Assembly: GCA_951812955.1 (NCBI GenBank)
Contig: OX638340.1
Coordinates: 704,001 to 768,000 of the forward strand
DNA: 64,000 bases
Reading direction: 5' to 3'
DNA from: an uncultured Gemmatimonadota bacterium
GTDB lineage: Bacteria > JAAXHH01
Part shown: piece by piece, positions 26,814 through 59,412 of the stretch
Layout of the letters: the number at the start of each line of letters is the position of its first letter
Position numbering within the stretch: the stretch's first letter is position 1
The notes under the pieces: generated by a model
Told to the model about the DNA's origin: nothing
Seen by the model: only the letters and a program-made list of their open reading frames with translations
Databases searched by the model: none
Position numbers and translations under genes: made by a program

Positions 26814-28118
26814 TTAGAATCCATTATCCCCGGGCAGGACCGCCGACCGCTGACCGATACGCCGCATGCGTTCATCCAGCAGCCTTTTGAGCTGATTCAA
26901 CTTGAGCCGGTGGGCCGCAAGTTCCATTTCGTGTTCCAGGATCATTTGCTGGATTAGATTGGGATCTTCACTGGGCAGGGGATCGTCCGCATCATCTTCG
27001 ACGAGTAAAGGCGAGGCGGGGGCATTCAGCAGTTTCGGCTGAGGCGCGAGAACCGTGTTCACCGTCTTTTCCGTATCTCCCCGCAGGTACGTGATTTCGA
27101 TCCGGGTGCCCACCGGTAGCGCGGTCACGAATTCTGCAAGGACAATGGGATGGTTCATCGGGACACCGTTTACAGCCTGCAGAATATCGCCCTTGCGCAG
27201 ACCGATCTTCATGGCCGGGCTATCGGGATATACATCAGAAACGACCATACCTTCTCCGGCGCCCAGCATGATATTGCGGTCGCCGCCGACATTGATGCTG
27301 TCCCAGATTTTCTCCACGTACACACCCAGCCAGCTCCGGCGGATCTCACCGTATTCGATGAGCTGTCTGGCGAAGGTCTTTACGCGGTTGATGGGAATGA
27401 CCGAAATCAATCCTCCGTCATTTCCTCCACTAAAGTGCTCCGACAGGGAGGTCTGTGCCCCCTGGGAATCGGCCACGAGACCGAGCAGGCGACCGTTCGT
27501 TGAAAACACGGCGCCGCCGGTGTAACCTCCGCCGACCACTGCGCTGACCTGCAACATGACATCTTCTTCCCTTACCCCGTTCACGATTCCCGTCGTCATC
27601 GAGGATGGAAATCCATGGGCGTTATTCAGCACAAGAACCCAGGATCCGGGACGGACGCCATCGGAATCACCGATGCGCGCGGTATGGACCGACACGCTGT
27701 CAACACGGATCACGGCGATATCGGAAAGCCTGTCCACCCCGACGAGTTCGCCGAGGCGGTACTGGCCATCCTGGAAATTCACCAGGATATCGTGGGCATG
27801 ATCCACGACGCCGGCCGTCGTGATGATGAAACCGTCTCTGTGGAGGACAACACCGGTCCCAATGGATCGTTCCCAGTCGGTGAAAGTCTGCCCGTTCACC
27901 GTATTGATGAATTTCCGCTGTACGATCACGCTGGCGATCGTCGGTTCCACGCGTTCAACGAGTCCGACGATCTCTTGTTCCAGGTTATGCAGGTACGGGG
28001 GGGCCTGCGCGTAAGCCCTGGAAGCGGCATAAAGGTGCCCCATACAGCACAGCAGCGCGGCACATATCAGGGGCCGAAAGTGTTCGGTTCCGAGTCGTAT
28101 GGGTTGAGAACCAAGCAT
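26814..28118 (-). CDS. HtrA/DegP-like S1C protease homolog with one PDZ domain; predicted nucleophile position is Thr (GYTGG) rather than Ser
   Basis: Signal peptide (AYA/QA), His (AGVVDHA), Asp (SDIAVIRVD), GGGYTGGAVF aligning to GNSGGPL, a PDZ domain (SWLGVYV...GDILQAVNG), and a C-terminal coiled-coil tail. It is the last gene of the ECF sigma / anti-sigma operon. Confidence 0.8.
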   Translation of the reverse strand: MLGSQPIRLGTEHFRPLICAALLCCMGHLYAASRAYAQAPPYLHNLEQEIVGLVERVEPTIASVIVQRKFINTVNGQTFTDWERSIGTGVVLHRDGFIITTAGVVDHAHDILVNFQDGQYRLGELVGVDRLSDIAVIRVDSVSVHTARIGDSDGVRPGSWVLVLNNAHGFPSSMTTGIVNGVREEDVMLQVSAVVGGGYTGGAVFSTNGRLLGLVADSQGAQTSLSEHFSGGNDGGLISVIPINRVKTFARQLIEYGEIRRSWLGVYVEKIWDSINVGGDRNIMLGAGEGMVVSDVYPDSPAMKIGLRKGDILQAVNGVPMNHPIVLAEFVTALPVGTRIEITYLRGDTEKTVNTVLAPQPKLLNAPASPLLVEDDADDPLPSEDPNLIQQMILEHEMELAAHRLKLNQLKRLLDERMRRIGQRSAVLPGDNGF

Positions 28119-28124
28119 GGTTGG

Positions 28125-28994
28125 TCAGAACGAGATACGGACGCGTCTGAGAGGGGTGGTCGGACCTGACGACCCTTGCGTGTCAGGCGAACCAGGCAAA
28201 CCATATGCTCGCTGTGTTGCGCGAAATTCGGTGGTTCCGACGGGTTGCAGACGTTCCTCCGTCGTCGGTTGATCTATATTGCCGCTGGTATCCAGGCCCC
28301 GGCCGAAGGACTCGCTGAACAGGGATGGATCGAGGCGCATGCCCGTACCTGCCGACACGAATCGGATCCCATGGGTTTTTGGTTCCATGGTCCTGACGGT
28401 CATGATGCCCGGTCTGTTGCCGGTGATTCCGGATGCGTTCAAAGAGAGACTGGATGCAGAAGAAGTGGGGAGAATGGATGCCTGTTCCTGGCTCAGTGCC
28501 GGCTTTACCGCCATGTACGGCGCGAGTTCTCTTTCTAGGGGAAAGGGCGAAATCGGATCGGGGGGTGCAAGTTCGGGTTCAACGGGCGTCGGCAGGGAAA
28601 AGGCCATGGGAGGGGACGGAGACGATTCGGACCGCCCCGTAGGCGCGGACAGTTCCCAGAATCCGCCGATCACGGTTATGGTAAGGATCAGGCTGGTCGC
28701 AAATACCAGTTGAACGGGACGCTGCCGGCTGTGTTCGCCCAGTTCGGCAAAAGCCCCCGATACGCGCCTCCACCAGGAAGCGGCGTACAGTTCACGGGCA
28801 ATTTCCAGGTTCAGCAGATTACCGAGTCGATGATCGAATCCTGGTTGAGGGGATACGGCGGGCAGACTCTTCACGGCCTGTATGGAGCTTTCCATGTCAT
28901 CAATCTTGAGCCGGCACCGTGGACATCCGTTCAGGTGAAACCGTAGTTCGTCTTCGGTTGCCTTCGACAACTGACCGTCCAGGTAGTCGGACAT
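28125..28994 (-). CDS. Anti-sigma factor, zf-HC2 (putative zinc-finger) type, single-pass membrane protein
   Basis: MSDYLDGQLS...HLNGCPRCR motif, one TM (LVFATSLILTITVIGGFW), and a Pro-rich periplasmic tail. It lies immediately downstream of the ECF sigma gene. The ORF is open to 29057, so the start is ambiguous. Confidence 0.65.
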   Translation of the reverse strand: MSDYLDGQLSKATEDELRFHLNGCPRCRLKIDDMESSIQAVKSLPAVSPQPGFDHRLGNLLNLEIARELYAASWWRRVSGAFAELGEHSRQRPVQLVFATSLILTITVIGGFWELSAPTGRSESSPSPPMAFSLPTPVEPELAPPDPISPFPLERELAPYMAVKPALSQEQASILPTSSASSLSLNASGITGNRPGIMTVRTMEPKTHGIRFVSAGTGMRLDPSLFSESFGRGLDTSGNIDQPTTEERLQPVGTTEFRATQRAYGLPGSPDTQGSSGPTTPLRRVRISF

Positions 28995-29035
28995 CTTCCG
29001 CTCGTAACCACTACAGTTCAAAATATCCTTCCTCC

Positions 29036-29683
29036 TCAAAGTATCTCTACCTGCCACTGCCTGAGCATTTCCTGCAGTCTCAGCCGGCCCCGGTTGACCC
29101 GCGACTTGACGGTTCCGGTCGGACAGTGCAGTATCTCGCCGATCTGTTCGTAAGACAGTTCTTCAATATCGCGCAGCACGATCACGGATTTGTATTTCTC
29201 CGGCAGTTGATCGATCGCGTGCTGGATGGCCCTGCCCAGTTCATTCTGCTCCAGGTGATCGCCAGGCCCCGCGTTCTTGTCCGGCAGATCGATTCCTTCC
29301 CTGGTGCTGTTCTCGTGGGGCGACGCGTTCAGGGAGAAGAACTGGCGGCGTTTTCGCTTGCGCAACTCGCTCCGGGCGAGATTGAGCGCGATGGTATAAA
29401 TCCAGGTGGAAAGATTGGAGATCGCCTTGTAGTTGTGGCGGTTCCGGTAGACCCTGAGAAACGTCTCCTGCACCAGGTCTTCCGCGCACTCCATATTGTG
29501 GACCATGCGATAAATGCAATTATACAACCTGGTACGGTATCTTCCGACGATAACTTCGAAAGCGCGCGCATCCTCCCGTTGAACCCGGATGAAAAGCGCT
29601 TCATCCGACAGGGTCAATTCGTCGAGCACCCCTGATTCGATATCGGAGACCTGTACCGCGTTTATATAGGTGTTGTCAGCCAT
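29036..29683 (-). CDS. RNA polymerase sigma-70 factor, ECF subfamily
   Basis: Region 2 (FEVIVGRYRTRLYNCIYRMVHNMECAEDLVQETFLRVY) and region 4 (VIVLRDIEELSYEQIGEILHCPTGTVKSRV). ATG 29683 preceded by GGGAGAGAAG; the alternative ATG is 29698. Confidence 0.85.
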   Translation of the reverse strand: MADNTYINAVQVSDIESGVLDELTLSDEALFIRVQREDARAFEVIVGRYRTRLYNCIYRMVHNMECAEDLVQETFLRVYRNRHNYKAISNLSTWIYTIALNLARSELRKRKRRQFFSLNASPHENSTREGIDLPDKNAGPGDHLEQNELGRAIQHAIDQLPEKYKSVIVLRDIEELSYEQIGEILHCPTGTVKSRVNRGRLRLQEMLRQWQVEIL

Positions 29684-29699
29684 TTTCTTCTCTCCCATA

Positions 29700-29838: not shown

Positions 29839-31518
29839 TCATGCCCGCACCTCGCTCACATCGTGTATGGTATACTGATAGCCCTGCTCAGTGAGGAAGA
29901 GCTGACGGTTCACGGCGTAGTCCTGGTCCAGGGTGTTTCGCGTGATGAGCGAGTAGAATATGGCGGCCGAGCCGTCAGCCTTGGGACGGAGGATCCGGCC
30001 CAGACGCTGGGCTTCCTCCTGGCGAGACCCGAAAGTGCCCGATATCTGGATCGCCACGTTGGCGTCCGGCAGGTCGATGGCGAAATTGGCGACTTTGGAC
30101 ACCACGAGGCGTTTGAGTTCACCGTTTCTGAACCGGTTATACAGATCGAGTCGGGCCTGCAGGGGCGTGCTGCCGGTGATCAGGGGGAAATCGAACAACG
30201 CGGCGATCTGCTTGAGCTGTCTCACGTATAGACCGATTATCAGAACCTGGTCCGTCGGATGTTGATCCAGCAGGTTGCGGATGATCTCCGTCTTCCGGCT
30301 GTTTTCCGAGGCGATCCTGAACTTCTCCCTGCGATTGGCCACGGCGTAGGACATGCGCCGTGCTTCGGGCAGGTCTATCCGGATTTCACGGCAGTACGCC
30401 TCCGCGATCCAACCCTGCCGCTCCAGCAGTTTCCAAGGCATGTCGTACCTTCGGGGACCAATGAGGCTGAAGACGTCGTCCTCGCGGCCGTCTTCCCGAA
30501 CCAGCGTAGCGGTCAGCCCGAGGCGCCTTCGGGCCTGGATCTCGGCCGTGAAACGAAAAACCGGGGCCGGCAGCAAGTGAACCTCGTCATAGATGATGAG
30601 GCCCCAGCCCTTCTGGTCGAATAGACCGAAATGCTTGAATTCGTCTCCCCTGCTTTTCCTGTAAGTCAGAATCTGGTATGTGGCCAGTGTTACGGGCCGA
30701 ATCTGTTTCGTTTCACCGGAATACTCACCGATCATATCCTCGGAAAGCGAAGTCTTCCCGATCAGTTCCTCCCGCCACTGCCGCAGTGCCACCGTGTTGG
30801 CCGTAAGTACGAGGGTGTGACATTTCAGGGCGGCCATGGCACCGAGGGCCACGATCGTTTTCCCCGCGCCGCAGGGGAGCACGACGACTCCGTTGCCGCC
30901 CTGCGGTTCGCCGTTCATGTGGAACGCGCCAACGGCGTCCACCTGGTAATCCCTCATGCTGAAGGATTTACGGTCGCCGGGCGTGGTGCGCAAATCGATT
31001 GCCAACGGGGCGCCTTCTACGTAACCCGCCAGATCTTCCACCGGAAATCCGACTTTTATCAGCGCCTGCTTGATGTGGCCGCGGAATCGATCACCCACCC
31101 GGACCCGTCGCTCGTCCAGCGGTTGTGCGAGAAACTGCTTGACCGAGGGCAGCCCGGAAACTTCCGCGATAAGCGCCGCATCGTCGGACTCGAGTATAAG
31201 CTTCCCGTCCTCCTTGCGCAGCCTGAGCTGGCCGTACCGGGCTATGAAATCGACGATCTCGCGGCGGATGTTCTGTGGAATCTCGTACTTGCTCAGGCCT
31301 TCGAGCGACTCGAGCACGCCGTCCGCTTCCATGCCCGCCGAGGCGGCGTTCCACAGTGACAGGGGGCTCAGCCTGTATACGTGGATATGCTCAGGGGACT
31401 TTTCCAGTTCCGCGAATCGCGCCAGCGCATCCCGAGCGTCCTCGTAGCGTGGATGGTCGACTTCGACGAGGATGGTCCGGTCGCTCTGCACGATCAATGG
31501 GTTCTTCAGGTCAGGCAA
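29839..31518 (-). CDS. XPB/Rad25(Ssl2)-like superfamily-2 DNA helicase
   Basis: N-terminal NPLIVQSDRTILVEV damage-recognition-like domain, Walker A (VVLPCGAGKT), DEVH (IIYDEVHLLPA), and C-terminal helicase motifs. TTG start preceded by AAGGGGAG. Confidence 0.8.
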   Translation of the reverse strand: MPDLKNPLIVQSDRTILVEVDHPRYEDARDALARFAELEKSPEHIHVYRLSPLSLWNAASAGMEADGVLESLEGLSKYEIPQNIRREIVDFIARYGQLRLRKEDGKLILESDDAALIAEVSGLPSVKQFLAQPLDERRVRVGDRFRGHIKQALIKVGFPVEDLAGYVEGAPLAIDLRTTPGDRKSFSMRDYQVDAVGAFHMNGEPQGGNGVVVLPCGAGKTIVALGAMAALKCHTLVLTANTVALRQWREELIGKTSLSEDMIGEYSGETKQIRPVTLATYQILTYRKSRGDEFKHFGLFDQKGWGLIIYDEVHLLPAPVFRFTAEIQARRRLGLTATLVREDGREDDVFSLIGPRRYDMPWKLLERQGWIAEAYCREIRIDLPEARRMSYAVANRREKFRIASENSRKTEIIRNLLDQHPTDQVLIIGLYVRQLKQIAALFDFPLITGSTPLQARLDLYNRFRNGELKRLVVSKVANFAIDLPDANVAIQISGTFGSRQEEAQRLGRILRPKADGSAAIFYSLITRNTLDQDYAVNRQLFLTEQGYQYTIHDVSEVRA

Positions 31519-34806: not shown

Positions 34807-35144
34807 TCGATCCGGTTCGTGCGAGTTGAAGACGTACGTCTCGATTGCATCTGAATTCTGAATGGGTTTACGGTGAAACCAAATCCGGTACGCGTGCGTT
34901 CTTACAATTGTCATTAAGGAATTGCTATAAAGGAACGAGTGCGTCTATCTAATATGAATACTCGTAGTTTGACGGAAATGAATACCCGCATTTTGAAGAA
35001 ATCCGGGGTGATCGCGATGCCGGATGGAATCCACCCGGATACCAGGTTCCATGACGATCTGCGAGATCGCCAAAGTTAAAGAAATACGAAGGAAGTGTCA
35101 AGGCGGGAACTTAAAAACACTGCCGCGAAATGCCCCGAAAACCA

Positions 35145-35172
35145 TTGACACGGAACATCTTCGCGTTAGTAT
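35145..35172 (+). promoter_or_regulatory. Sigma-70-like promoter (TTGACA-N16-TAGTAT) for the ctp-like gene
   Basis: TTGACA at 35145-35150, a 16-nt spacer, and TAGTAT at 35167-35172. This leaves a ~108-nt leader to ATG 35288. Confidence 0.45.
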
Positions 35173-35287: not shown

Positions 35288-36919
35288 ATGTCGATCATGA
35301 AGAGACCGAAATACCTGATCCTGCTGGTTTTTGTAGCGGTCGGATCGTTCCTGCTGGGCAGTACGGCGGACAGGACGATACACGCGGCGGACAACATCTA
35401 CTCGAGCACCAGGCTGCTGATGGGCGTACTCAGCCTTGTCAACGACAACTATGTAGAGGAAGTAGAGCCCGGTGAGTTGATCTACGCCGCAATCGACGGT
35501 ATGCTCGAAGTGCTCGATCCTCATTCCAGTTTCCTGAGCAAGGAAACCTTTGCCGAAATGGGAGAACGCTTCAGTGGGAATTTCTACGGCATCGGGATCG
35601 AGTTCGACGTGCTGGATGGATTCCTGTACGTTATTTCCGTGATCGATGAATCGCCATCGGAAGCCGTTGGCCTCCAGTCCGGCGATCGTATTGTTCGGAT
35701 TGACGGTGAATCGGCGATAGGCATCAAGCATGACGAGGTCCGACATAAATTGCGTGGGGAGAAAGGAACCAGGGTGGACGTAACTATCGAACGGACCGGA
35801 GTCGACGAGCGGTTCGACGTTACGATCACCCGCGATCGGATTCCCATTCGCAGCGTTCGGACGTCCATCATGCTGGAAGACCAGACCGGATACATCCAGT
35901 TGATCCGGTTCGCCAAGACCACTTCGCGGGAACTCGAGACTGCCCTGGACAAGCTTCAACAAGACGGCATGGAGCGGCTGATACTCGACCTGAGAGGCAA
36001 TTCCGGAGGCTACCTGGACCAGGCGGTGGCGGTGTCGAGCAAGTTCATACCAGAAGGCCGCGTAATCGTTAAAACCATGGGCAGGAACCGGACTTCCAAC
36101 CAGACGTTTCAATCTCTTAGCGGAGTGCGCCACCGCGATATGCCCCTGGTGATCCTGCTGGACCATCGCTCCGCCTCCGCATCCGAAATCGTGGCCGGCG
36201 CCGTTCAGGACTGGGACCGGGGCGTGATTGCCGGAACCCGCAGTTTCGGCAAGGGTCTCGTACAGACTCTGTTCGCGGAGCCTCACCTGGCTGACGGTTC
36301 CGCGCTAAAACTGACGACGGCCCGATACTACACCCCAAGCGGTCGCATGATCCAACGGGACTATAAGAACAAATCCTACCAGGAGTACATCGAAGGCTCG
36401 TTCAGCGAATCCGGCGAGGCGGCGACGGGGGAGGATTCCGCTTCAGCATCGGACAACCCTGACCGCCCTGAATACGTCACCGCTGCAGGGCGTACAGTCT
36501 ACGGAGACGGCGGCATTTCTCCCGATGTCGTTATCAAGACGCCGAAACGCCAGTACCCCTTCGTTATAGGCAAGTACAGGGGCTGGATGCCTTTCGACCG
36601 GGCCTGTTTCGAATTCGCCAATACCTACGGCGTGACCCGGCCGGACCTCAGGGACGACTTCGACACCTTCCTGAACGAGTTTCAGGTCGACGAGGCCATG
36701 CTGGAAGCGTTCAAGACCCAGGTCCGGGAGTCCGGAATATCCTTCTCCGACGATGAATTCAGCGCCGATCTGGACGTCATCGAACTCCAGTTGAAACGGG
36801 CCCTTGCCCGGAATCTCTGGGGTGACGAGGAAGCCAGCCGCGTAGCCGCGGCCGGAGACGAACAACTCCAGCGGGCCCTTCTGTTGTTCAATTCTCACGA
36901 GATGCTGGTTCAGCACTAA
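35288..36919 (+). CDS. Carboxyl-terminal processing protease (S41 family, Ctp/Prc-like) with a PDZ domain
   Basis: S41 motifs (LDLRGNSGGYL, GASASEIVAGA), a PDZ domain, and a signal/anchor N-terminus. GAAGGAG RBS. Confidence 0.85.
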   Translation: MSIMKRPKYLILLVFVAVGSFLLGSTADRTIHAADNIYSSTRLLMGVLSLVNDNYVEEVEPGELIYAAIDGMLEVLDPHSSFLSKETFAEMGERFSGNFYGIGIEFDVLDGFLYVISVIDESPSEAVGLQSGDRIVRIDGESAIGIKHDEVRHKLRGEKGTRVDVTIERTGVDERFDVTITRDRIPIRSVRTSIMLEDQTGYIQLIRFAKTTSRELETALDKLQQDGMERLILDLRGNSGGYLDQAVAVSSKFIPEGRVIVKTMGRNRTSNQTFQSLSGVRHRDMPLVILLDHRSASASEIVAGAVQDWDRGVIAGTRSFGKGLVQTLFAEPHLADGSALKLTTARYYTPSGRMIQRDYKNKSYQEYIEGSFSESGEAATGEDSASASDNPDRPEYVTAAGRTVYGDGGISPDVVIKTPKRQYPFVIGKYRGWMPFDRACFEFANTYGVTRPDLRDDFDTFLNEFQVDEAMLEAFKTQVRESGISFSDDEFSADLDVIELQLKRALARNLWGDEEASRVAAAGDEQLQRALLLFNSHEMLVQH

Positions 36920-36988
36920 CGAGTTTATAAAAGGGACCCGCGGACCGCGGAATAACAAGGCCACGCCGGAGAACGCCAAGGATTGACC

Positions 36989-39900
36989 GTGCCGAGTAAA
37001 ACCTCCCTTTCCGCCTGGCACGCGCTGCGAGACCGGCTCCACGAACTTCGAATCCGCAGCCGTTGGGTTGTCATCGCCGAAGGCTTGTTCATCACCGGCG
37101 CGCTGATCTGCGTCCTCGCGCTTTCCCTCGCCACGCTCGAATCCTACCTCTACCTCGACCCGGTGGTTAGGCTGGTACTGATCTCGGCGAGTATCATGCT
37201 CCTGACGGCAGTGCTGGTCCGGCGAAATCTGCATCGTTTGAGACACGGTTTTTCCGACGATGACCTCGCGCGGCAGGTCGATTCCCAGTATCCTGAATTG
37301 AACGACCGGGTCACCGTGGCCTTGCAACTCTCCCGGCAGCGGGAAGAGGGATCCAAGGCCTCGCCCGCACTCCTGGACGCGGCCGTTACGGATGCCGCAA
37401 AATACACCCGGACGGTGGATTTCAAAGAAGCAGATCAAAGATTCCGCATCGCCCCGGCCGCCAAGAGATTCGGCCTTGCCGCGCTGCTATTGATACTGGC
37501 GATGGCCGCGTTCGGCGCGCCGCTTACCGGCGCCCTCGGCCGGCTGGCAAGCCCCCTGACCCATTTCCAGCCTCCGCAACGCACGTTTCTGAGCGTCCTG
37601 CCGGGAGACGTGGAAGTTGCGGCCGGAGGCCACGTAACGATTATGGCCGAAGCGGTCGGCGAGATGCCAGGCCGGGCCATCATGCACCTGACCTCGGACG
37701 AAGGATCGAGCAACTCCGTGGATATGAAGGCCACGGCGCCGGGTTCGTACTCCCACACCCTGCGGGAGATCAGGGAGAGTCTGACCTACGTAATCGAGGC
37801 CGGAGACGCCGTCAGCCATTCCTTTCGCATCAAAGCCATCGATCGCCCGTTCATCGGCGCGCTGCGCCTTACCTATCATTATCCTGCCTACACCAGGCTT
37901 GAACCCAGGACCACCACCGAAGGAGGCGACATCGTCGCACTGAAGGGAACGCGGGTGGAACTGGCCGCCGTGGATGCAAGCCGGAATCTGTCGGAAGCGG
38001 CGCTTTTCATCGAGCATTCAGACGAACCGGTAGCCATGAAGGTTGTAGACGACACGGCCACCGTACCGCTGACCGTGCAGTCAGATCAACGGTACCGCAT
38101 CATGTTGCGCAACATGGACGGCCATGAAAGCGCGGACCCCGCATGGTACCGGATTATCGCGTTGCCGGACCGCATGCCATCGCTCCGCATCCTGTCGCCC
38201 GGCCGAAATACAGATCTCACGGAGAACATGGTCGTTTCGTTTCTGGTATCAGGCACGGACGACTTCGGGTTCTCGGGAATGAACCTGGTCTACCGTAAAG
38301 AACCCGGAGGCGAGGAGCGGAACCTGCCCATCCCCGTGGACACGGAGTCCACGATGATTTCGCAGCCATTCGTCTGGGATCTCTCAAATGAAAACCTCTT
38401 TCCGGGGGACGTGGTCTCCTACCGGATCGAATTGTATGACAACGACACGATTTCGGGGCCGAAGCGGGCGGTAAGCCGCACCTATACGCTCCGGTTTCCT
38501 TCGATAGAAGAGATATACGATCAGATCGACGAAACACAGGAACAACAGGTCTCGGACATGGAGGATATGCTGGAAGAGCAGGAAGAAACCAGGAAGAAAA
38601 TCGAAGAACTGAATCGGACCCTCGAACAGAAAGCAAGGGAAGAAGCCGACGGGATTCAGTCGGAGGAATTGTCCTGGGAACAGAAAAAGGAGATCGAATC
38701 CGTTCTGACCGGCCAGGAACAGGCGACCGACGAACTCCTCAAAGCGGCCGAAGCGATCAGGGCGACCATGGAAACACTGGAAGACCACGATTCGCCCAGC
38801 CAGGAGCTCATCGACAAGATGGATCAACTGCGGAAGCTTTTTCAGGAGATCGCCACGCCCGAATTGCTGAAGGCTATGCAGGAATTGAAACAAGCCCTTC
38901 AGTCCTTCGACAACGAGCAGCTGAAGGCGTCGATGGAATCCTTCGAATTCGAGCAGGAAGAGTTTTTGAAACGACTGGAGCGCAGCCTCTCCATTCTGAA
39001 GCAAATCCGGATGGAGCAGCAGTTGATGGCTGCCGTTCGACAGACTCAGGACCTCGCTGCACGACAGGACGAGTTGCGCTACGCAACGGAGAATTCGTCG
39101 AACAGCGAAGAGCGATTGGAACTATCGGAAAAGCAGCAACAGTTAGGGGAGGACACAGGCTCCCTGCAGCGCGACCTGGAAAGTCTCGCCCGCGCGATGG
39201 AAGCGTTCAGGGACATGCCCGCAGAGCGTGTGCTCGAGGCCGCCGGCGATATGGAACGCCGGGATATGACGGGAAACATGGATCAGATCGCCGAACAATT
39301 GAAAGTCGGCAGGATGCAGCGGGCGATGGCAGGCCAACAGGAAATGTCCCGGGCGCTTTCCGGTCTGAACCAGCAACTGCAGGACATCCAGGATCAACTA
39401 CAGGAAGACCGGATGCGGGAAATCGCCGAAGGAATGCGCCGCGCGATGCACCAACTGGTCGATCTTTCCGTCAGCCAGGAGACCCTTAACGAACGCACCC
39501 GGAGCCCGGGTGGGTCCGGAACCCGGATCAACATTCTTACGGAAGACCAGCAGGGACTCCTTGGCGGCGCTTCGCTCGTGGCCAACGACATCGTATCCAT
39601 TGCGCAGAAAACGCCGTTCATTTCTCCTTCCATCGGACGAGCGCTGGGAGAAACACTGAACAGCATGGAGCGCGCGGAGGACCACCTGGCCGAACAGGAA
39701 CGCGATACGGCGTCCGGGGAACAACTGGCCGCCATGAAGTCTCTGAACGAGACCGTACTGGCCTTGCAGCGGTCCATGAGCAACATGGCGAATTCCGGTT
39801 CGTCCTCCGGCATGATGGATCTCATCGAAAGGCTTCAGGGCATGGCCAGGCAACAGACCGGAATTAACGACCAGATGGACCCGATGATGGATGAATCGAA

Positions 39901-40372
39901 CGGCAGCATGGACCTGGAAACCCAGGCACAGGTATCCAGGCTGGCAGCCAGGCAGGAAGCGTTGCGTAAGAGCCTGGAACAACTGCGTAGTGAGCAGCAG
40001 GGTCATCAGGAACAGATTCTCGGCAGGTTGCAGGAAATCGAAAACGAGATGGACGACACCGTACGTGAGTTGCAACAGTTCCGGGTCGACCCCGACCTGG
40101 TGGAGCGCCAGCAACGGATCCTGTCCAGGTTGCTGGACGCTTCGCGGTCCATTCGCGGACAGAAACGCGAGGAAAAGCGGCGAGCCGCACCTGGCGAGGA
40201 CCTCGTTAACCTTCCTGCGCCGGACGACTTGCCCGAAGATCTGACCCAGCTGGAACGCTCCCTCCGGGATGATATCCTGGGTCGTGTCGAAGAAGGCGCG
40301 TATCCCCGGGAATACGAAGAACTCATACGCGCCTATTTCCGCGCGCTTGCACACATTCCTGTAGTAAACTAG
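36989..40372 (+). CDS. Large (~1128 aa) double-TM anchored protein with an Ig-like beta-rich middle region and a ~600-aa E/Q/L-rich coiled coil; function unknown (DUF4175-like?)
   Basis: Two N-terminal TM helices, a beta-rich region (~aa 230-500), and heptad-like repeats rich in E, Q, L and R to the C-terminus. GTG 36989 follows AAGGA (spacer 6); the ORF is open from TTG 36983. Confidence 0.6.
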   Translation: MPSKTSLSAWHALRDRLHELRIRSRWVVIAEGLFITGALICVLALSLATLESYLYLDPVVRLVLISASIMLLTAVLVRRNLHRLRHGFSDDDLARQVDSQYPELNDRVTVALQLSRQREEGSKASPALLDAAVTDAAKYTRTVDFKEADQRFRIAPAAKRFGLAALLLILAMAAFGAPLTGALGRLASPLTHFQPPQRTFLSVLPGDVEVAAGGHVTIMAEAVGEMPGRAIMHLTSDEGSSNSVDMKATAPGSYSHTLREIRESLTYVIEAGDAVSHSFRIKAIDRPFIGALRLTYHYPAYTRLEPRTTTEGGDIVALKGTRVELAAVDASRNLSEAALFIEHSDEPVAMKVVDDTATVPLTVQSDQRYRIMLRNMDGHESADPAWYRIIALPDRMPSLRILSPGRNTDLTENMVVSFLVSGTDDFGFSGMNLVYRKEPGGEERNLPIPVDTESTMISQPFVWDLSNENLFPGDVVSYRIELYDNDTISGPKRAVSRTYTLRFPSIEEIYDQIDETQEQQVSDMEDMLEEQEETRKKIEELNRTLEQKAREEADGIQSEELSWEQKKEIESVLTGQEQATDELLKAAEAIRATMETLEDHDSPSQELIDKMDQLRKLFQEIATPELLKAMQELKQALQSFDNEQLKASMESFEFEQEEFLKRLERSLSILKQIRMEQQLMAAVRQTQDLAARQDELRYATENSSNSEERLELSEKQQQLGEDTGSLQRDLESLARAMEAFRDMPAERVLEAAGDMERRDMTGNMDQIAEQLKVGRMQRAMAGQQEMSRALSGLNQQLQDIQDQLQEDRMREIAEGMRRAMHQLVDLSVSQETLNERTRSPGGSGTRINILTEDQQGLLGGASLVANDIVSIAQKTPFISPSIGRALGETLNSMERAEDHLAEQERDTASGEQLAAMKSLNETVLALQRSMSNMANSGSSSGMMDLIERLQGMARQQTGINDQMDPMMDESNGSMDLETQAQVSRLAARQEALRKSLEQLRSEQQGHQEQILGRLQEIENEMDDTVRELQQFRVDPDLVERQQRILSRLLDASRSIRGQKREEKRRAAPGEDLVNLPAPDDLPEDLTQLERSLRDDILGRVEEGAYPREYEELIRAYFRALAHIPVVN

Positions 40373-40381
40373 GCGGCGATC

Positions 40382-42262
40382 GTGTATCGCAGTTCCAGAA
40401 CGCAAAGCGGCAGTGCGACACCGCGACGTAGGAATCTCGTATGCGGTTTGCTCGCCGCGTTAATGACAGCTCAGTTATTGCTGTTCTCGAGTGCCGAAGG
40501 ACAGACCGGACGGACGGACGACCTGAACAGGAGGATCGAGCAGGCCAGGAGTCTGGAACGTCTCCGGCAATACGACAGGGCGGTTGCCATATTCGAGCGC
40601 GTGTTGCGGGATGCTCCGGACAACCGGTCCGCGCTCAACGGCGCCGTACGGCTTTACTTCCGGCTGAACGCCTTTGACCGGGCGATACCTCTGCTCGAGA
40701 CCCATATTGAGAAAAACCCCGACAGAATAAACCTGCGCGGCATGCTTGCCGAAGCGCTTTTCGGCGTCGGGCGGGACGGCGACGCGGAGGAACAGATCCG
40801 AATCCTGCAAGACCGTTTTCCGCAAAGTGAATCGGCCGTGAACGAGATCGCTTATCTGTACCTCGACAGGCAGGCGTACGACAAGGCCATCCAGACCTAC
40901 CTTTCCGGACGGAAAAGACTGGGCAAACCGGGGGCTTTCGCCCTTGGTCTCGCCAGTGTCTACACCAGTGCGTACGACATACCGGGCGCCGTACGAGAAT
41001 ACGTGCGGTGGTTGACGCAGCAACCCCGTCAGCAGCGTATCGTCAATGATCGCATCGACCTGCTCGCGGGTTCGGGAGGCCAGGAACTCGTTGAAGAGTC
41101 GCTGAAATCAGCGGTGTCCGAACATGGCGGCAGCAAGGATGCACACGATCTGCTCGGTAGTTTTTACCTGCGATCCGATAAACCCACTGAGGCCTTGGCC
41201 GCGTACCGCGTTGCGGACCGGTTGGACGGTGCCAGCGGGAAATACCTTATCCGGTTTGCGGAATGGGCCCTGCGGGAAGGGCACTATCGGAACGCCATTG
41301 GCACATATCAGGAATTGACCAGGACAACCATGTCGGATTCCCTGCGCGCCGAGGCCTATTCCGGCCTCGCCATGGCGTTTCAGGAAAGTGGCGCCGTGAA
41401 CGATGCCGCCGAGACCTACCGGAATATCATCGCGCAGTATCCGGGATCCAGGTTCCGCGAAGAGGCGATGTCCAACCTGGCGGACCTGCACCTTGTTCAC
41501 TACCGGGACGCGCCACAGGCCCTCGAACTGTACCGGTCGCTGCTGGACGGTCCGGACGACGCATCCACGTCGAAGTACCGTGAAAATGCCCTGTTTGGCA
41601 TCGCGGAGAGTTACGTCGTCATGGGCAGTCTCGAAGACGCGCTTGTCTATTACAACCGCATCAGGGACCCTGCTTCCGGATTCGCCGATTCTGAAACCCG
41701 TGCGCGGACGAATTACCATCTGGGTGAACTGGCGTTATTTCAGGGCCGATTGGACGAGGCCCTCGAACTATTCCACGAGACGGCAGACCGCTATTCGGGG
41801 AGTCCCTTTGCCAATGATGCGTTGGAATGGACCATCCTGATTGCCGAGGGCCGGCAGGGAGGAGACCGTTCGTTTACGGAGTATATCCGGTCGGTGCTGC
41901 TGCAACGTCGGCACAGGGACCTGGAAGCCCTGGCAGCCTGCAAGTCTCTAGTCGAGGAGCACGCGCAAAGTCCCATCGCGGACACAGTCATCCTGGACAT
42001 CGGGATGATACTCGACCGGCTGGGCAAGCCGTTCCAGGCGGTCGCGGCCCTTCGCGACCTGATCGAGCGGCATCCGGATAGCCGCCATAGCGCCACTGCC
42101 CGGCGGCGGATCGCGGAAATCTACGAAACTGGCATCGGTGATATCCCCCAGGCGCTCACGGAGTATGAGGCCCTGCTCCTGTCCCACCCGGACCACTTCA
42201 AAAACGACGCCGTCCGCCGCAAGATAAGAGAACTGACCGCAAACCATCCGCCCCTGCCGTGA
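40382..42262 (+). CDS. Tetratricopeptide-repeat (TPR) protein, secreted or periplasmic
   Basis: Signal-like N-terminus and repeated 34-aa A/Y/L-rich TPR motifs throughout. It lies 10 nt after the large coiled-coil gene. Confidence 0.7.
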   Translation: MYRSSRTQSGSATPRRRNLVCGLLAALMTAQLLLFSSAEGQTGRTDDLNRRIEQARSLERLRQYDRAVAIFERVLRDAPDNRSALNGAVRLYFRLNAFDRAIPLLETHIEKNPDRINLRGMLAEALFGVGRDGDAEEQIRILQDRFPQSESAVNEIAYLYLDRQAYDKAIQTYLSGRKRLGKPGAFALGLASVYTSAYDIPGAVREYVRWLTQQPRQQRIVNDRIDLLAGSGGQELVEESLKSAVSEHGGSKDAHDLLGSFYLRSDKPTEALAAYRVADRLDGASGKYLIRFAEWALREGHYRNAIGTYQELTRTTMSDSLRAEAYSGLAMAFQESGAVNDAAETYRNIIAQYPGSRFREEAMSNLADLHLVHYRDAPQALELYRSLLDGPDDASTSKYRENALFGIAESYVVMGSLEDALVYYNRIRDPASGFADSETRARTNYHLGELALFQGRLDEALELFHETADRYSGSPFANDALEWTILIAEGRQGGDRSFTEYIRSVLLQRRHRDLEALAACKSLVEEHAQSPIADTVILDIGMILDRLGKPFQAVAALRDLIERHPDSRHSATARRRIAEIYETGIGDIPQALTEYEALLLSHPDHFKNDAVRRKIRELTANHPPLP

Positions 42263-43701
42263 CCATGTCCAGATCGCTTCACATACATCTTGTGGCCATC
42301 TGCGGTACAGGGATGGGCGCGCTCGCGGTGATGCTCAAGTCTCTGGGTCACCGGGTTACCGGAAGCGACGAGAACGTCTATCCCCCAATGAGTACGGTGC
42401 TTTCGGAGCAGCGAATAACTGTATTTAATGGTTACGCCGCATCCAACCTGGATCCGCCGCCGGACCTAGTAGTCATCGGAAACGCGGTTTCCCGGGGCAA
42501 TCCCGAGGCCGAAGCGGTGCTCGAAAGGAAGATCCGGTATGCGTCCATGCCGGAGACACTCAAGACATTCTTTCTATGGGACCGCAAACCGGTCGTGGTG
42601 GCGGGAACACACGGCAAGACGACTACGACGGCGATGCTCGCATGGGTGTTCACCGAAGCCGGCCTGGATCCAAGCTACATTGTCGGCGGCGTTCCCATCG
42701 GCTGGCAGACCGGCGCGCGGCTGGGATCGGGCGACCTGTTCATCCTGGAAGGCGATGAATACGACAGCGCCTTCTTCGACAAACGTGCGAAGTTCCTTCA
42801 TTACCTGCCCGATACGGTGATCATAAACAACATCGAATTCGATCACGCGGACATTTACGATTCGCTCGATGAGATCGAGCTTGCCTTCAGAAGGCTGGTC
42901 AACATCATACCGGAAAACGGCCTGTTGATCGGCCCGGCGGACGACGCCCGTGTCCGGGCGCTCGCTTCACGCGCATTCTGCCCCGTCCATACCCTGGGCG
43001 CGTCACCGGACGCAAGGTGGTCGGTGCGTGACGTATCCAGCGATCCCGGCGGCACGTCCTTCGACCTGTATGAACTGGGTGAGCACCGCGCCCGTCTCAT
43101 GATCGGTCAACTCGGAATGCACAATGTCAGGAACGCCCTGGCGGTCGTGGCCGCCGCCAGGCATTACGGCGTATCCTGGCCGGATCTGACACGGAGCCTG
43201 AAGTCCTTCCCCGGTGTGAAGCGGCGTCTCGAAGAGCGGGGCGAAATAAATGGTATCGCGGTCTACGACGATTTCGCTCACCACCCCACGGCCGTAAAGG
43301 CGACGCTGGAAGCCCTCAGGAGGGCTTTTCAGGACCGGCGTATCTGGGCCGTATTCGAACCGCGTTCCGCCACGACCATACGCCGGAACTTCCAGGAAGC
43401 CTACGGCGCTGCATTCGACAACGCGGACCGCGTGCTGATCGCGCCGGTCTTTCTACCCGGCAAAGCGCCGGACGGCAACCGTTTTTCAGTGGACGAACTG
43501 TTGGATGGACTGCGCGGGCGGGGTCTGAAGGCCGTCGCCACGGAAAGCGTGGAACAAATCGTCGAACATCTAGCCGAGGAGGCGGCGCCGGGCGACCGGA
43601 TCGTGTTCATGAGCAATGGGGGATTCGGCGGTATCCTCGATAGGACTTTGAACGCGCTGGGGAAAAAACACGCGGTGGAAGCGTCCCGGAAACAGGACTA
43701 G
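42259..43701 (+). CDS. mpl: UDP-N-acetylmuramate:L-alanyl-gamma-D-glutamyl-meso-diaminopimelate ligase (murein peptide ligase)
   Basis: HIHLVAICGTGMGALAVMLKSLGHRVTGSD N-terminus and Mur-ligase motifs (VAGTHGKTTTTAM). GTGA overlap with the TPR gene stop. Confidence 0.85.
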   Translation: MTMSRSLHIHLVAICGTGMGALAVMLKSLGHRVTGSDENVYPPMSTVLSEQRITVFNGYAASNLDPPPDLVVIGNAVSRGNPEAEAVLERKIRYASMPETLKTFFLWDRKPVVVAGTHGKTTTTAMLAWVFTEAGLDPSYIVGGVPIGWQTGARLGSGDLFILEGDEYDSAFFDKRAKFLHYLPDTVIINNIEFDHADIYDSLDEIELAFRRLVNIIPENGLLIGPADDARVRALASRAFCPVHTLGASPDARWSVRDVSSDPGGTSFDLYELGEHRARLMIGQLGMHNVRNALAVVAAARHYGVSWPDLTRSLKSFPGVKRRLEERGEINGIAVYDDFAHHPTAVKATLEALRRAFQDRRIWAVFEPRSATTIRRNFQEAYGAAFDNADRVLIAPVFLPGKAPDGNRFSVDELLDGLRGRGLKAVATESVEQIVEHLAEEAAPGDRIVFMSNGGFGGILDRTLNALGKKHAVEASRKQD

Positions 43702-44678
43702 GCGTGCCGAGCGTACACTTCGACGTCCATTACTTTGCCGGCCGACCTGAACTGCTTCCGCAGCGTAGCTTCATGGATGAATCCCGCGTCTCGCAGTGCC
43801 GCGCTCTTCGGGCCGTCGTCCGGTTCAACATGGCAGATTACCTTGCGTCCGGTCGGAAGAGCAAATGAATCGAGCAGTGGCTTCAGTTGCGCCGTAAAGG
43901 CGGAATGAACGGCCAGATCGAGGAGAAAGGTCTCGCCGCGCCAGCGGGTATCGGGCGCCAGGGTCGCGTAACCCGTGACCGCTCCGCGCTCCGTGACCAT
44001 CAGCCGGACCTGGACATCATCCGCTTCCCGTGTTTGCTTCATCAGCCCCAGGTAGGCCCCCTCGAACATGCGCGGTCCGATATGTCCCAGTCCGACGTTA
44101 CGCAGGGAAGGCGGACCGGACTGTGCGCAGAACACGTTAAGCGAAGGCCAGTTCTTCCAGTCCCCAGGGACCACGCGAGCCCTGCCTCCGCGGAAATGTT
44201 CCCGCTCGTACGCCGCGTGCTCCATGTACTTCATGTGACCCGATTCCGGCTCGACGCTACGGAAACCGAAGCCGTGGTAGAGGTAATAGGGATGGGTATC
44301 GTAGCCGGTGGACAGCGTAAGGTACCGGCCGTCCCGGGCTTTGAAATCGGCCATCTGCTCGGTCATTACGAGCCGCGCTACACCCTTGCGGCGGTGTTCA
44401 GGCGCGGTGTACACGTGGCTCAGGATGCCGATCCCGTCGTGTTCGCTGACCATGATGTTGCAGACCGCCCTGTCGTTTAGACAGCCGAGGTAGAACCTGG
44501 TTTCGAGGGGGCTGACCCGGCCGGCGAATACCTCGTCGAGATGCCACTGTTCGTTGCTGTACTTGTGCGCCAGGATCGGCCGGACCAGGGGCGCATAGTC
44601 GTCATCCGGCGCCAGGACGACGCCGATTTCGAGCTTTTCACCCGTGCGGAGCGTACTGGCGGCGATCTGCGTGTACAT
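43698..44678 (-). CDS. GNAT family N-acetyltransferase (tandem GNAT-like domains)
   Basis: Motif A region HVYTAPEHRRKGVARLVM...YYLYHGFGF. ATG 44678. Convergent 4-nt overlap with the mpl stop. Confidence 0.7.
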   Translation of the reverse strand: MYTQIAASTLRTGEKLEIGVVLAPDDDYAPLVRPILAHKYSNEQWHLDEVFAGRVSPLETRFYLGCLNDRAVCNIMVSEHDGIGILSHVYTAPEHRRKGVARLVMTEQMADFKARDGRYLTLSTGYDTHPYYLYHGFGFRSVEPESGHMKYMEHAAYEREHFRGGRARVVPGDWKNWPSLNVFCAQSGPPSLRNVGLGHIGPRMFEGAYLGLMKQTREADDVQVRLMVTERGAVTGYATLAPDTRWRGETFLLDLAVHSAFTAQLKPLLDSFALPTGRKVICHVEPDDGPKSAALRDAGFIHEATLRKQFRSAGKVMDVEVYARHA

Positions 44679-44733
44679 AAACGTTGGGGTACAATCGGAG
44701 TTGGGGGATGGATTGAGATCGCGGCCTGTGCTT

Positions 44734-45153
44734 CTAGGTCTGCCTGCCGCGGCCCAGAACAGCACCGACGGCCATGCCGCTCAACGCCACCTGAACTGTA
44801 TCGATGATGACCTTGATCAAGGTCCCGGTGAGATCCAGCATGGTGGTCATGCCAAAGAGGCTCAGACCCAGGAACAGGTGGAGTAGCGCTCCGAAGACCG
44901 CACTGGTCCCAAGGGCCTTTACCGCGCCGGTGTGGCCCGTCCAGCAGCCAAGGAGCACGGTCAGTAAAGCGCCCATGGCAACGGCGCCCAGGACGATCGT
45001 CCACACGTTCGGGCTGGACTTCATGACCAGTTCGGGAGCCGTCACCGCGTAACCTTTTAAAAAACCGCCGAACAAACCGCCAGCGGCAAAGCCAAGCAGC
45101 AGCACCATGACGGTCCCGGTTACAGTCGCAATGGCGAATCGTTGTACAGACAT
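44734..45153 (-). CDS. Small 4-TM membrane protein, DUF1761-like (paralog A)
   Basis: 139 aa, hydrophobic, with N-terminus FAIATVTGTVMVLLLGF. GGGAGAGGAG RBS. Paralogous to the adjacent gene. Confidence 0.5.
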   Translation of the reverse strand: MSVQRFAIATVTGTVMVLLLGFAAGGLFGGFLKGYAVTAPELVMKSSPNVWTIVLGAVAMGALLTVLLGCWTGHTGAVKALGTSAVFGALLHLFLGLSLFGMTTMLDLTGTLIKVIIDTVQVALSGMAVGAVLGRGRQT

Positions 45154-45253: not shown

Positions 45254-45667
45254 TCACTTCCTGGCGAGTACGATTCCGATCACGGCGCCCGCCAGGGAAA
45301 TGCGTACCGTCGTCAGGACAACGTCAAACAACGTCGCCTGGAGATTCATGTAGTGCACTGTGCCGTAGAACATCATGCTGATGCTCAGGCTCAGCAGGAA
45401 ACCGAAAATCGCGCCGGTCCTGAATCCCGCACCTGCGCCGGATACCTTTGCCCAGCAACCGATTACGAGGCACAGCAACGCCGCCAGTACCAACTCGCTC
45501 AGGTAAATGAACAGCATTTCGGGCGGGTCTTTCGTCACGGAGGCCGCCCCCGGATCGGCGTTCGCGGCGAAAAACCCCATGAACAACACCGCATACAGGA
45601 AGAAACCCATGACGAGCAGAACCACGGCGCCTGCGATCGTAGCGACCAGGAAACGGGTTAGACTCAT
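45254..45667 (-). CDS. Small 4-TM membrane protein, DUF1761-like (paralog B)
   Basis: 137 aa with the same architecture (FLVATIAGAVVLLVMGFFLY). GGAG RBS. Confidence 0.5.
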   Translation of the reverse strand: MSLTRFLVATIAGAVVLLVMGFFLYAVLFMGFFAANADPGAASVTKDPPEMLFIYLSELVLAALLCLVIGCWAKVSGAGAGFRTGAIFGFLLSLSISMMFYGTVHYMNLQATLFDVVLTTVRISLAGAVIGIVLARK

Positions 45668-51107: not shown

Positions 51108-51893
51108 ATGACAAAGGAAGAGGGCGCGCGCAAACGCGAGCAACTGATCCGCGACGGATACTGTCATATCGAAGGCGTGCTGCCAGAAGACTTCCTGGCT
51201 ACCATGCGGGAAGAATCGGACCGCCTGCTCGATTCGGCGGAACACCCGCCCGAGTGGCAGTACCAGGGATCCGACCTGCATGTTTCCGGTCAGGATAACG
51301 AGGCGATGGGCAACTTGCTCGAGTGGCCCGGCGCCCGGGATATCCTCAATACCATGGGCCTGACGGATTTCACCCCTTCCGGTATCGTAATCATCCTGAG
51401 CAAGCCGGCCGGCGGTCCGCCCCTCTACTGGCACCAGGACTGGATGGCGTGGAACGATCCCATCAGCCTGGCACCCTGGCCTCAGACCATATTCCTTTCC
51501 TACTACCTGGTGGACACGGACTTCGAAAACGGGTGTTTCCGCGTTATACCCGGCACGCATCGCAGGCGCATTCCCCTGCACGGCCAGGTGGAGGTCGCCC
51601 ACCAGGAGACCGCGTATTTCGCCGACATGAAGGATCCGCACATGTTCGGTGACCATACGGACGCTGTCGACCTGCCCGTGAAAGCCGGCGACCTGGTCAT
51701 CGGTGACGCACGCGTCCTTCACGCGGCGCGCGGCAACAACAGTGATCGCAGGCGGACTTTGCTTCTGGGATGGCACAACCGGCCGCTGACCGTACCGGAT
51801 CACTGGACTGGCGAGGTGCCCGAACCCATCCTGAACCGCCCGCCGGACGCCCGTTACGAAGGCACGAGAATCCCCGGAAAATACCTGGAGTAG
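51108..51893 (+). CDS. Phytanoyl-CoA dioxygenase (PhyH) family oxygenase
   Basis: REQLIRDGYCHIEGVL, YWHQDW and FRVIPGTHRR motifs. Confidence 0.8.
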   Translation: MTKEEGARKREQLIRDGYCHIEGVLPEDFLATMREESDRLLDSAEHPPEWQYQGSDLHVSGQDNEAMGNLLEWPGARDILNTMGLTDFTPSGIVIILSKPAGGPPLYWHQDWMAWNDPISLAPWPQTIFLSYYLVDTDFENGCFRVIPGTHRRRIPLHGQVEVAHQETAYFADMKDPHMFGDHTDAVDLPVKAGDLVIGDARVLHAARGNNSDRRRTLLLGWHNRPLTVPDHWTGEVPEPILNRPPDARYEGTRIPGKYLE

Positions 51894-51896
51894 CCA

Positions 51897-52640
51897 ATGA
51901 CCGAATTCGAAAACGCAGTCTACGAACTGGATGTGTACGGATTCACAGTCGTGGAGCGCGTCTTAACATCCGAACAGACGGAATCCATGCGCAGCGTGCT
52001 GATGCGTCTGAACGACGAGGTGGGTGAAGAACGCGGCGGCGAAGGATCCTGCAGCCACGTAAGCAACCTGCCCACCCTGGACCCGATCTTCTTTCCGGTC
52101 ATCGATCACCCCCGAATCCTGCCCATCCTCGAGCATTACCTCGAGCCCACGTTGATCCTGGGCAGCTTGAACAGCCGCATCGTGCGGCCGGGGGACGGCG
52201 ATCAGGGCTTTCACAGCGATATCCCCGCCGAGATGCTCAACATGGCCTCGCCGGTAATGATGAACACCGTGTGGATGCTGGATGATTTCTCACCCGAAAA
52301 CGGCGGCACCCGGGTCGTTCCCGGAACCCACAAAAGTGGCCTGGGCCATCCGTCTCAGGGGGTTGAAGTAAAGTACTACGTGCAGCCAGCCGCTCCCGCG
52401 GGAAGCGTGCTGGTCTTCAATGGCCAATGCTGGCACGGGGGCGGGGCCAACCATGGCAGCGCGAACCGGCACGCACTCTTCGCGCATTACCGGAAACGCA
52501 TGCTCATGTTCCAGTACGATCCCCACGAACGGTTCCCCGTCGAATGGTACGGACTGCTCACGGACCGTCAGAAGGAAATCATGCGCATGAAGCACGGTGT
52601 GGACGCGCCCCGTGCGGCCGACGTGCAGGTTTTCAGATAG
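51897..52640 (+). CDS. Phytanoyl-CoA dioxygenase (PhyH) family oxygenase (tandem paralog)
   Basis: YELDVYGFTVVERVL, FHSDIP and GGTRVVPGTHKSG motifs. It starts 3 nt after the previous PhyH gene. Confidence 0.8.
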   Translation: MTEFENAVYELDVYGFTVVERVLTSEQTESMRSVLMRLNDEVGEERGGEGSCSHVSNLPTLDPIFFPVIDHPRILPILEHYLEPTLILGSLNSRIVRPGDGDQGFHSDIPAEMLNMASPVMMNTVWMLDDFSPENGGTRVVPGTHKSGLGHPSQGVEVKYYVQPAAPAGSVLVFNGQCWHGGGANHGSANRHALFAHYRKRMLMFQYDPHERFPVEWYGLLTDRQKEIMRMKHGVDAPRAADVQVFR

Positions 52641-59181: not shown

Positions 59182-59412
59182 TCGACTTCCTCCACGTGGG
59201 TTCATTAATATACCCCCGGCACCTTCGCTCGTAAAGCGGTATCATCGGCTGGCCGGAGGCTGCTTGTGCGGGAATCAGCGGCACATTACAGGCGGGCGCG
59301 GGCCGGCCGGATGGCGTGTTCAGGGTCGATTTTCCTTGACACACCGGTCGGCTGGGGGTATCGTATTTCTACTATTCGGTCAAACCCGCTGGCAACCCCA
59401 GAAGGAGCGTTT

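Follow-up and report, generated by a model that had tools for sequence, protein, structure and literature searches.

What is the role of a membrane-anchored protein of more than 1,100 amino acids (aa) whose gene lies between those of a C-terminal processing protease and a tetratricopeptide repeat (TPR) protein, just ahead of a murein-recycling ligase? The question is raised by four plus-strand genes at positions 35288–43701 of the window, a 64,000-nt stretch of DNA from an uncultured Gemmatimonadota bacterium (assembly GCA_951812955.1, contig OX638340.1, positions 704,001–768,000 of the forward strand). A first-pass annotation, made without database searches, read them as a peptidoglycan-remodelling or cell-shape module built around a giant coiled-coil protein. 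We place the large protein in the DUF4175 family and pair it with the TPR protein encoded behind it, and we give a probability of about one half to the reading that the two act as a scaffold in the periplasm, within a Bat-like envelope system whose genes are dispersed and which is coupled here to a CtpA-like protease.

All four genes were recovered on the plus strand in the proposed order, and their identities hold in Pfam and NCBIfam searches. The first encodes a CtpA-like S41 C-terminal processing protease of 543 aa (35288–36919; open reading frame (ORF) call, Pfam, NCBIfam). It is followed by the DUF4175-family protein (36983–40372; Pfam PF13779, homologues, AlphaFold2 (AF2) model), which is 1129 aa long from a TTG start or 1127 aa long from an alternative GTG at 36989, rather than 1128 aa as first reported. 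Next come a multi-TPR protein of 626 aa (40382–42262; Pfam and a hidden Markov model (HMM) of the neighbour family) and mpl, encoding the 480-aa UDP-N-acetylmuramate:L-Ala-gamma-D-Glu-meso-DAP ligase (42259–43701; TIGR01081). The ctp and DUF4175 genes are 63 nt apart (TTG start) or, as originally given, 69 nt apart (GTG start); the second gap measures 9 nt and not 10, and the TPR and mpl genes share the 4-nt GTGA overlap noted earlier, by which mpl is translationally coupled to the TPR gene. Tight spacing, a conserved promoter (see below) and a gene order maintained in eight species indicate that the four genes are probably a compact, co-transcribed unit, as had been supposed.

The family assignment of the large protein, for which the first-pass annotation had suggested testing DUF4175, is clear: it scores 47.9 bits against the PF13779 cut-off of 27.3, with the match covering aa 272–968 and model positions 175–768. 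No NCBIfam model, TIGR02302 included, matches it at E ≤ 0.01, and a sequence-profile search of the PDB returned only designed helical bundles and chemoreceptors, both compositional matches. Across Pfam, NCBIfam, PDB profile and structure searches the protein is thus without a characterised relative, and its description as a protein of unknown function stands, since DUF4175 is itself an uncharacterised family.

Its topology differs from the one first drawn. In place of two N-terminal transmembrane (TM) helices, hydropathy reveals three hydrophobic segments (aa 29–47, 61–79 and 163–181), all kept in 42 homologues. Two of them make up a TM hairpin (aa 29–79; 37067–37219, plus strand; hydropathy and lysine/arginine (K/R) counts), and the third (37469–37525, plus strand; hydropathy, K/R counts and AF2) is preceded by a K/R-rich helical stretch of ~80 aa. 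Of the four stretches compared over the 42 homologues, the one ahead of TM1 (K/R density 0.22) and the one linking TM2 to TM3 (0.15) are richer in K/R than the loop (0.06) and the part past TM3 (0.08). Because three TM segments and the positive-inside rule together favour an external body, we infer that the N-terminus and the ~80-residue helical segment are cytoplasmic and that aa ~190–1129 are periplasmic, which conflicts with the cytoplasmic location that had been offered as an option.

An AF2 model built on the 42-sequence alignment (mean predicted local distance difference test score, pLDDT, 80.1; predicted template modelling score, pTM, 0.45, at which the arrangement of domains relative to one another is unreliable) resolves this body into two parts. 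The Ig-like beta region anticipated from sequence corresponds to three immunoglobulin (Ig)-like beta-sandwich domains (aa ~195–506; 37565–38500, plus strand; AF2, Foldseek and invariant columns), which in Foldseek match tandem Ig, fibronectin type III (FnIII) and complement macroglobulin (MG) domains. Conservation within the protein peaks in the third of these, where two acidic motifs are invariant, DDFG (426–429) and DND (486–488), a plausible cation- or ligand-binding site. The remainder (aa ~507–1123; 38501–40351, plus strand) is all-helical, with ~18 helices of 13–63 residues packed as bundles in the model, in place of the ~600-residue coiled coil, filament or ruler of the first-pass annotation, and it ends in the conserved motifs RQQRILSRLLD and YPxEYExLIRxYF(R/E)AL. 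The C-terminal tail (40340–40369) is hydrophobic, of the form (I/V)PVV(N/H), only in the window and in its four closest homologous loci (L001–L004), and is short and polar in all other homologues. The C-terminal processing protease could recognise such a tail; as evidence of recognition by Ctp we set it aside as too weak, and it is missing from some Ctp-linked loci.

Proteins of this kind are abundant. A word-indexed search yielded 83 relatives, the closest of which (70–96% identical) come from metagenome bins, the more distant ones being labelled Latescibacteria, Gemmatimonadota, Calditrichaeota, Zixibacteria and Acidobacteriota, and a scan of one genome per GTDB species gave at least 581 loci encoding a DUF4175 protein, among them loci in metagenome-assembled genomes labelled Ignavibacterium album and Melioribacter, two genera that have members in culture. 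When the beta region alone was searched among 1.84 billion cluster representatives (clusters at 50% identity), the matches numbered 9,619 at E ≤ 1e-3, with 4,489 of them reaching E ≤ 1e-10; among the 150 matches listed, most are ~1100–1150 aa long with the beta region at ~aa 190–520. By these comparisons the large protein is an ordinary member of a very common protein type of largely fixed design.

The alphaproteobacterial TIGR02302 proteins, which we take to belong to the same Pfam family, resemble the window protein in having N-terminal membrane helices and, after them, a long extracytoplasmic region of low complexity that is rich in helix. Any kinship between the two would run via the Pfam family, whose match to the window protein is limited to aa 272–968, whereas the DUF4175 subfamily of the Fibrobacterota–Chlorobiota–Bacteroidota (FCB) type is longer (~1100–1150 aa) and has conserved motifs and partners of its own. 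The envelope and division regulator CenR of R. sphaeroides directly targets one TIGR02302 protein (PMC9275681). The essential division protein AdvA of A. baumannii likewise combines the DUF4175 annotation with N-terminal TM helices (PMC7481262); compared by description only, the domain of AdvA lies, together with its two TM helices, before residue ~203, whereas the window protein matches model positions 175–768.

Which genes accompany DUF4175 was examined in 80 loci from related phyla (FCB) with 10-kb flanks, in which ORFs were called and clustered and HMMs of recurrent neighbours were built. A DUF4159 protein, ~225 aa long and starting with a signal peptide (214.7 bits in Pfam), is encoded directly upstream on the same strand in 52/80 loci and within 10 kb in 59/80, and not directly upstream in L001–L010. 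An orthologous TPR protein (500–780 bits) is encoded directly downstream in 25 of the 80. The HMM of this neighbour family scores 705 bits on the TPR protein of the window, which on this measure is truly orthologous to the TPR gene found downstream of DUF4175 in many FCB-group genomes. Other neighbours include SurA-like peptidyl-prolyl isomerases, DUF456 proteins and pairs of extracytoplasmic function (ECF) sigma and anti-sigma factors, and in five Ignavibacteriota loci the DUF4159–DUF4175 pair comes after ftsQ-ftsA-ftsZ.

Ctp and Mpl have a much narrower distribution. A ctp gene stands directly upstream of DUF4175 only in L001–L008, from eight species whose large proteins are 47–78% identical to that of the window, and an Mpl homologue lies downstream in 7/7 of these loci that extend far enough; purD, tsaC-like and GNAT-like genes are likewise kept in this clade. 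Outside it, Ctp and Mpl are never adjacent to the DUF4175 gene in the 80 loci. The conservation of the neighbourhood, which the first-pass annotation had proposed to check, therefore holds for gene order in eight species, but Ctp and Mpl fall outside the conserved module, whose constant partners are DUF4159 and the TPR protein.

More distant DUF4175 relatives, for eight of which the genomic context was examined, connect the family to the MoxR/Bat genes. In three of the eight contexts (L081/L082 from Acidobacteriota, L085 and L088), DUF4175 sits inside an operon together with DUF4159, MoxR (AAA_3), DUF58 and BatA/VWA. Two further contexts have GATase1-like or ThuA neighbours; a Polyangia relative is encoded between an ECF sigma factor and a gene for a TPR–Peptidase_MA_2 protein, beside two class A penicillin-binding proteins (PBPs); and in two of the eight nothing Bat-like or similar was seen. 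The gene directly downstream of DUF4175 in L083 and L085 encodes a TPR region fused to Peptidase_MA_2, and a similar fusion is located upstream of DUF4159 in L081. MoxR/Bat operons show phenotypes in stress tolerance, membrane integrity and cell shape through a mechanism that is unknown (PMC11834572, PMC3893208); the MoxR operon of R. leguminosarum, for instance, affects membrane integrity and cell shape (PMC3893208).

The window itself holds one possible dispersed partner of such a system, a BatA_N and VWA_2 protein of 764 aa encoded ~16.5 kb downstream on the minus strand (56911–59205; phmmer, Pfam), outside the operon and adjoining hflX (55552–56868). It matches the BatA protein preceding DUF4175 in L081 (phmmer E 3.9e-50), and towards its C-terminus it gives a GATase1_like hit that is weak and stays below threshold.

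The protease contains Peptidase_S41 and PDZ domains, scores 290 bits against the TIGR00225 cut-off of 219, begins with a signal or anchor segment (hydrophobic aa 9–27), and finishes with an extension of ~185 aa in which no Pfam domain exceeded threshold. Among solved structures, P. aeruginosa CtpA (7RPQ, E 3e-66) comes closest to it; the motifs SASA(S/A)E (here SASASE), FGKG and VQT, holding the Ser-Lys-Gln triad defined for CtpA (PMC8764530), are kept in the alignment to 7RPQ. CtpA becomes active only when bound to LbcA, a large TPR lipoprotein of spiral shape, and together the two degrade peptidoglycan hydrolases (PMC6050968, PMC8764530, PMC11021448). The window resembles this system in having both an S41 protease and a large TPR protein, the latter of 626 aa against 540–545 residues in LbcA chains, and departs from it in the extra C-terminal ~185 aa of the protease and in a TPR protein that has no lipobox and is tied primarily to DUF4175, not to Ctp. 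A second pair of S41 protease and TPR adaptor is Prc–NlpI of E. coli.

The N-terminus of the TPR protein is signal-peptide-like; in MYRSS...RRNLVCGLLAALMTAQLLLFSSAEGQ the only cysteine precedes the hydrophobic core, with no [GAS] at −1, and no lipobox was found there. We considered whether the protein might be a degenerate TPR–Peptidase_MA_2 fusion and rejected this, as HExxH is present in 0/28 family members and not in the window protein either, and the profile match does not reach past the TPRs. Signal-like N-termini are common to Ctp, the TPR protein and DUF4159, and the products of ctp, the DUF4175 gene and the TPR gene are all predicted to be extracytoplasmic. Mpl is assigned by TIGR01081 (469.5 bits, cut-off 388.7), its MurC score of 327 falling below the cut-off of 335.1.

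S41 is not the only peptidase type found at DUF4175 genes. Besides the Peptidase_MA_2 fusions, a gene of the M14 zinc-carboxypeptidase family is directly downstream in five Ignavibacteriota/Bacteroidota loci (L039, L047, L048, L050 and L051; for example L039 4507–5685), followed by an ECF sigma factor, an anti-sigma factor or both in four of the five, the contig of L051 ending at that point. Peptidases of three clans (MA, M14 and S41) thus recur beside DUF4175 in unrelated lineages, and it is because of this recurrence, in our view the best argument available, that the protease appears functionally coupled to the pair and not a chance neighbour.

From these observations we propose the following mechanism. 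Anchored in the inner membrane by three helices, the large protein would reach into the periplasm, its three Ig-like domains forming a stalk and the helical bundles stacked at the far end, with the TPR protein encoded directly downstream as its evolutionarily stable partner. The two would be components of an extended MoxR/BatA ('Bat-like') envelope system, the other genes of which (DUF4159, MoxR, DUF58 and BatA/VWA) are adjacent in other phyla and would be dispersed here. In this Latescibacterota clade the pair appears to have been placed behind a CtpA-like protease and ahead of mpl, in one operon. It may serve there in envelope maintenance, as a scaffold or adaptor in the periplasm, and the S41 protease would work with it, either partnered by the TPR protein or acting on the DUF4175 protein or its clients; Mpl probably takes no part beyond being co-expressed.

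Several points weigh against this proposal, to which we give even odds. The adjacency of Ctp and Mpl is confined to one clade and possibly reflects inherited order with no functional meaning. The Bat-like link comes from three distant relatives, only ~20–29% identical, and MoxR is found within 10 kb in just 2/80 FCB loci. With the Bat/MoxR operons the window has the TPR partner in common; the BatA_N/VWA protein that it also encodes is ~16.5 kb off on the other strand, and neither MoxR nor DUF58 (phmmer with the L081 proteins) nor any homologue of DUF4159, C6 (a recurrent neighbour described below) or DUF456 (HMMs) was detected in the 64 kb. The TPR protein matches LbcA only at the generic level of TPRs (E 6e-5), has no lipobox, and accompanies DUF4175 in lineages with no Ctp nearby. 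Topology was derived only from hydropathy and the positive-inside rule, and the pTM leaves the relative placement of stalk and bundles unreliable. Our literature search, finally, found no paper studying a DUF4175 or DUF4159 protein, DUF4159 being mentioned only in a Pfam database paper, and none treating DUF4175 as a Bat component.

The most serious competitor, possible although clearly weaker than our own proposal, is that only the DUF4175 and TPR proteins cooperate, while Ctp and Mpl are independent housekeeping genes that share the promoter by inherited order. The flanks do differ in 70 other loci; within L001–L008, the only loci with Ctp and Mpl adjacent, purD, tsaC-like and GNAT-like genes are kept as well, which points to general collinearity, and Mpl is a cytoplasmic enzyme acting on soluble murein peptides. 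Yet the gene order is still found where the large proteins are no more than 47% identical, the coupling of start and stop codons is tight, and chance would not predict three peptidase clans recurring in unrelated lineages. The dedicated four-gene module of the first-pass annotation, with the giant protein as a coiled-coil filament or ruler, goes to the opposite extreme and strikes us as improbable. An envelope theme is reasonable: the genes are kept together in eight species, CtpA-type proteases control peptidoglycan hydrolases (PMC6050968), Mpl recycles murein tripeptide, and the DUF4159–DUF4175 pair comes after ftsQ-ftsA-ftsZ in the five Ignavibacteriota loci, as a Polyangia relative does beside the two class A PBPs. 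A module role, however, would hang on neighbours that are lineage-specific, Mpl among them, whereas the DUF4175 family is widespread without Ctp or Mpl; moreover, the helices of the large protein reach at most 63 residues and pack as bundles, and no peptidoglycan-binding or enzymatic domain was found in domain searches.

The E-, Q- and L-rich composition of the C-terminal half, together with weak compositional matches to chemoreceptor and F-BAR helices, might still recall a coiled-coil protein of SMC-like or cytoskeletal type that lies in the cytoplasm, tethered to the membrane. We consider this very improbable: the third TM segment and the charge distribution put the body outside the cytoplasm, its Ig-like domains are typical of extracytoplasmic proteins, the partners carry signal peptides, SMC and ATPase domains are absent from the Pfam and NCBIfam results, and the protein has neither a long continuous coiled coil nor ATPase heads. 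A bolder extension of the periplasmic scaffold, which we regard as speculative and as doubtful as the four-gene module, would make the DUF4175–TPR pair a platform in the periplasm from which peptidases, S41 in this clade and M14 or MA-clan in others, receive their substrates, with Bat-like MoxR systems acting in the turnover of peptidoglycan or envelope proteins. If that were true, the CtpA/Mpl operon would be the first genomic clue linking the Bat-like system to cell-wall recycling.

Expression of the operon would start at a sigma-70-like promoter upstream of ctp, TTGACA-N16-TAGTAT (35145–35172, plus strand; pattern scan and alignment). This promoter had been called strong; by itself the motif lacks significance (2 occurrences, where shuffles lead one to expect 3.5), but a real promoter is supported because both hexamers are conserved, while the spacer varies, in an alignment of six orthologous intergenic regions. 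About 40 nt upstream of the −35 hexamer, the intergenic alignment contains a conserved box, GTGTCAAGGCG (35095–35105, plus strand), kept in the window and in L001, L004, L002, L003 and L008, which could be a regulator site or part of the divergent purD promoter. In the 5′ leader of ctp no significant structure was seen (z-score −0.47), nor does the covariation term speak for a fold. No convincing plus-strand terminator was found between the four genes. A palindromic GC-rich hairpin, CCGCGG-ACC-GCGG, was picked up by sequence scan in the spacer between ctp and the DUF4175 gene (36937–36951, plus strand), and it is not an obvious terminator because it has no T-tract on the plus strand; the only T-tract is on the minus strand, where no gene ends. 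No RNA genes were detected in the whole window by Rfam at gathering thresholds and tRNA scans.

Among the recurrent neighbours in the 80-locus survey, C6 is a 425-aa protein with no Pfam or NCBIfam match, encoded after the DUF4175–TPR pair in 14 loci (L011, L013–L016, L019, L021, L024, L033, L036, L043, L056, L059 and L068; e.g. L013 15506–16786). NCBIfam has no model for either DUF4159 or C6. Kinship between these two was considered and dropped: they have in common only a 16-residue GGFLxA-type (GGFLFA-type) motif at 54% probability, from which no conclusion is drawn.

Around the operon, a 355-aa GNAT-domain protein with no NCBIfam assignment is encoded convergently to mpl (43698–44765, minus strand), overlapping its stop by 4 nt in a position that is kept in the clade. 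Tandem genes (44734–45153 and 45254–45667, both minus strand) encode paralogous multi-pass membrane proteins of 139 and 137 aa, which have no Pfam match and have homologues in L001, L002 and L004. Some 6 kb upstream of the operon lie genes for an ECF sigma factor (29036–29698, minus strand) and a zf-HC2 anti-sigma factor (28125–29057, minus strand), beside that of an HtrA-like Trypsin_2/PDZ protease (26814–28118, minus strand); in 15 other loci a member of this sigma-factor family is encoded no more than 10 kb from DUF4175, often accompanied by an anti-sigma factor. The window also encodes an XPB/Rad25-type helicase (29839–31518, minus strand; ERCC3_RAD25_C, Helicase_C_3 and ResIII) and two PhyH-family dioxygenases in tandem (51108–52640, plus strand).

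Taken on its own, the operon of the window is a lineage-specific variant around a catalogued, uncharacterised family, and as an instance it is not exceptional. What it bears on is wider: DUF4175 and DUF4159 are large families for which the literature search returned no dedicated studies. The lineage-specific coupling to Ctp and Mpl hints at a link with cell-wall turnover and does not establish one, and the partners identified around the family, namely DUF4159, the TPR protein and MoxR-DUF58-BatA, together with the recurrent peptidases, offer a concrete starting point for experiments on it.

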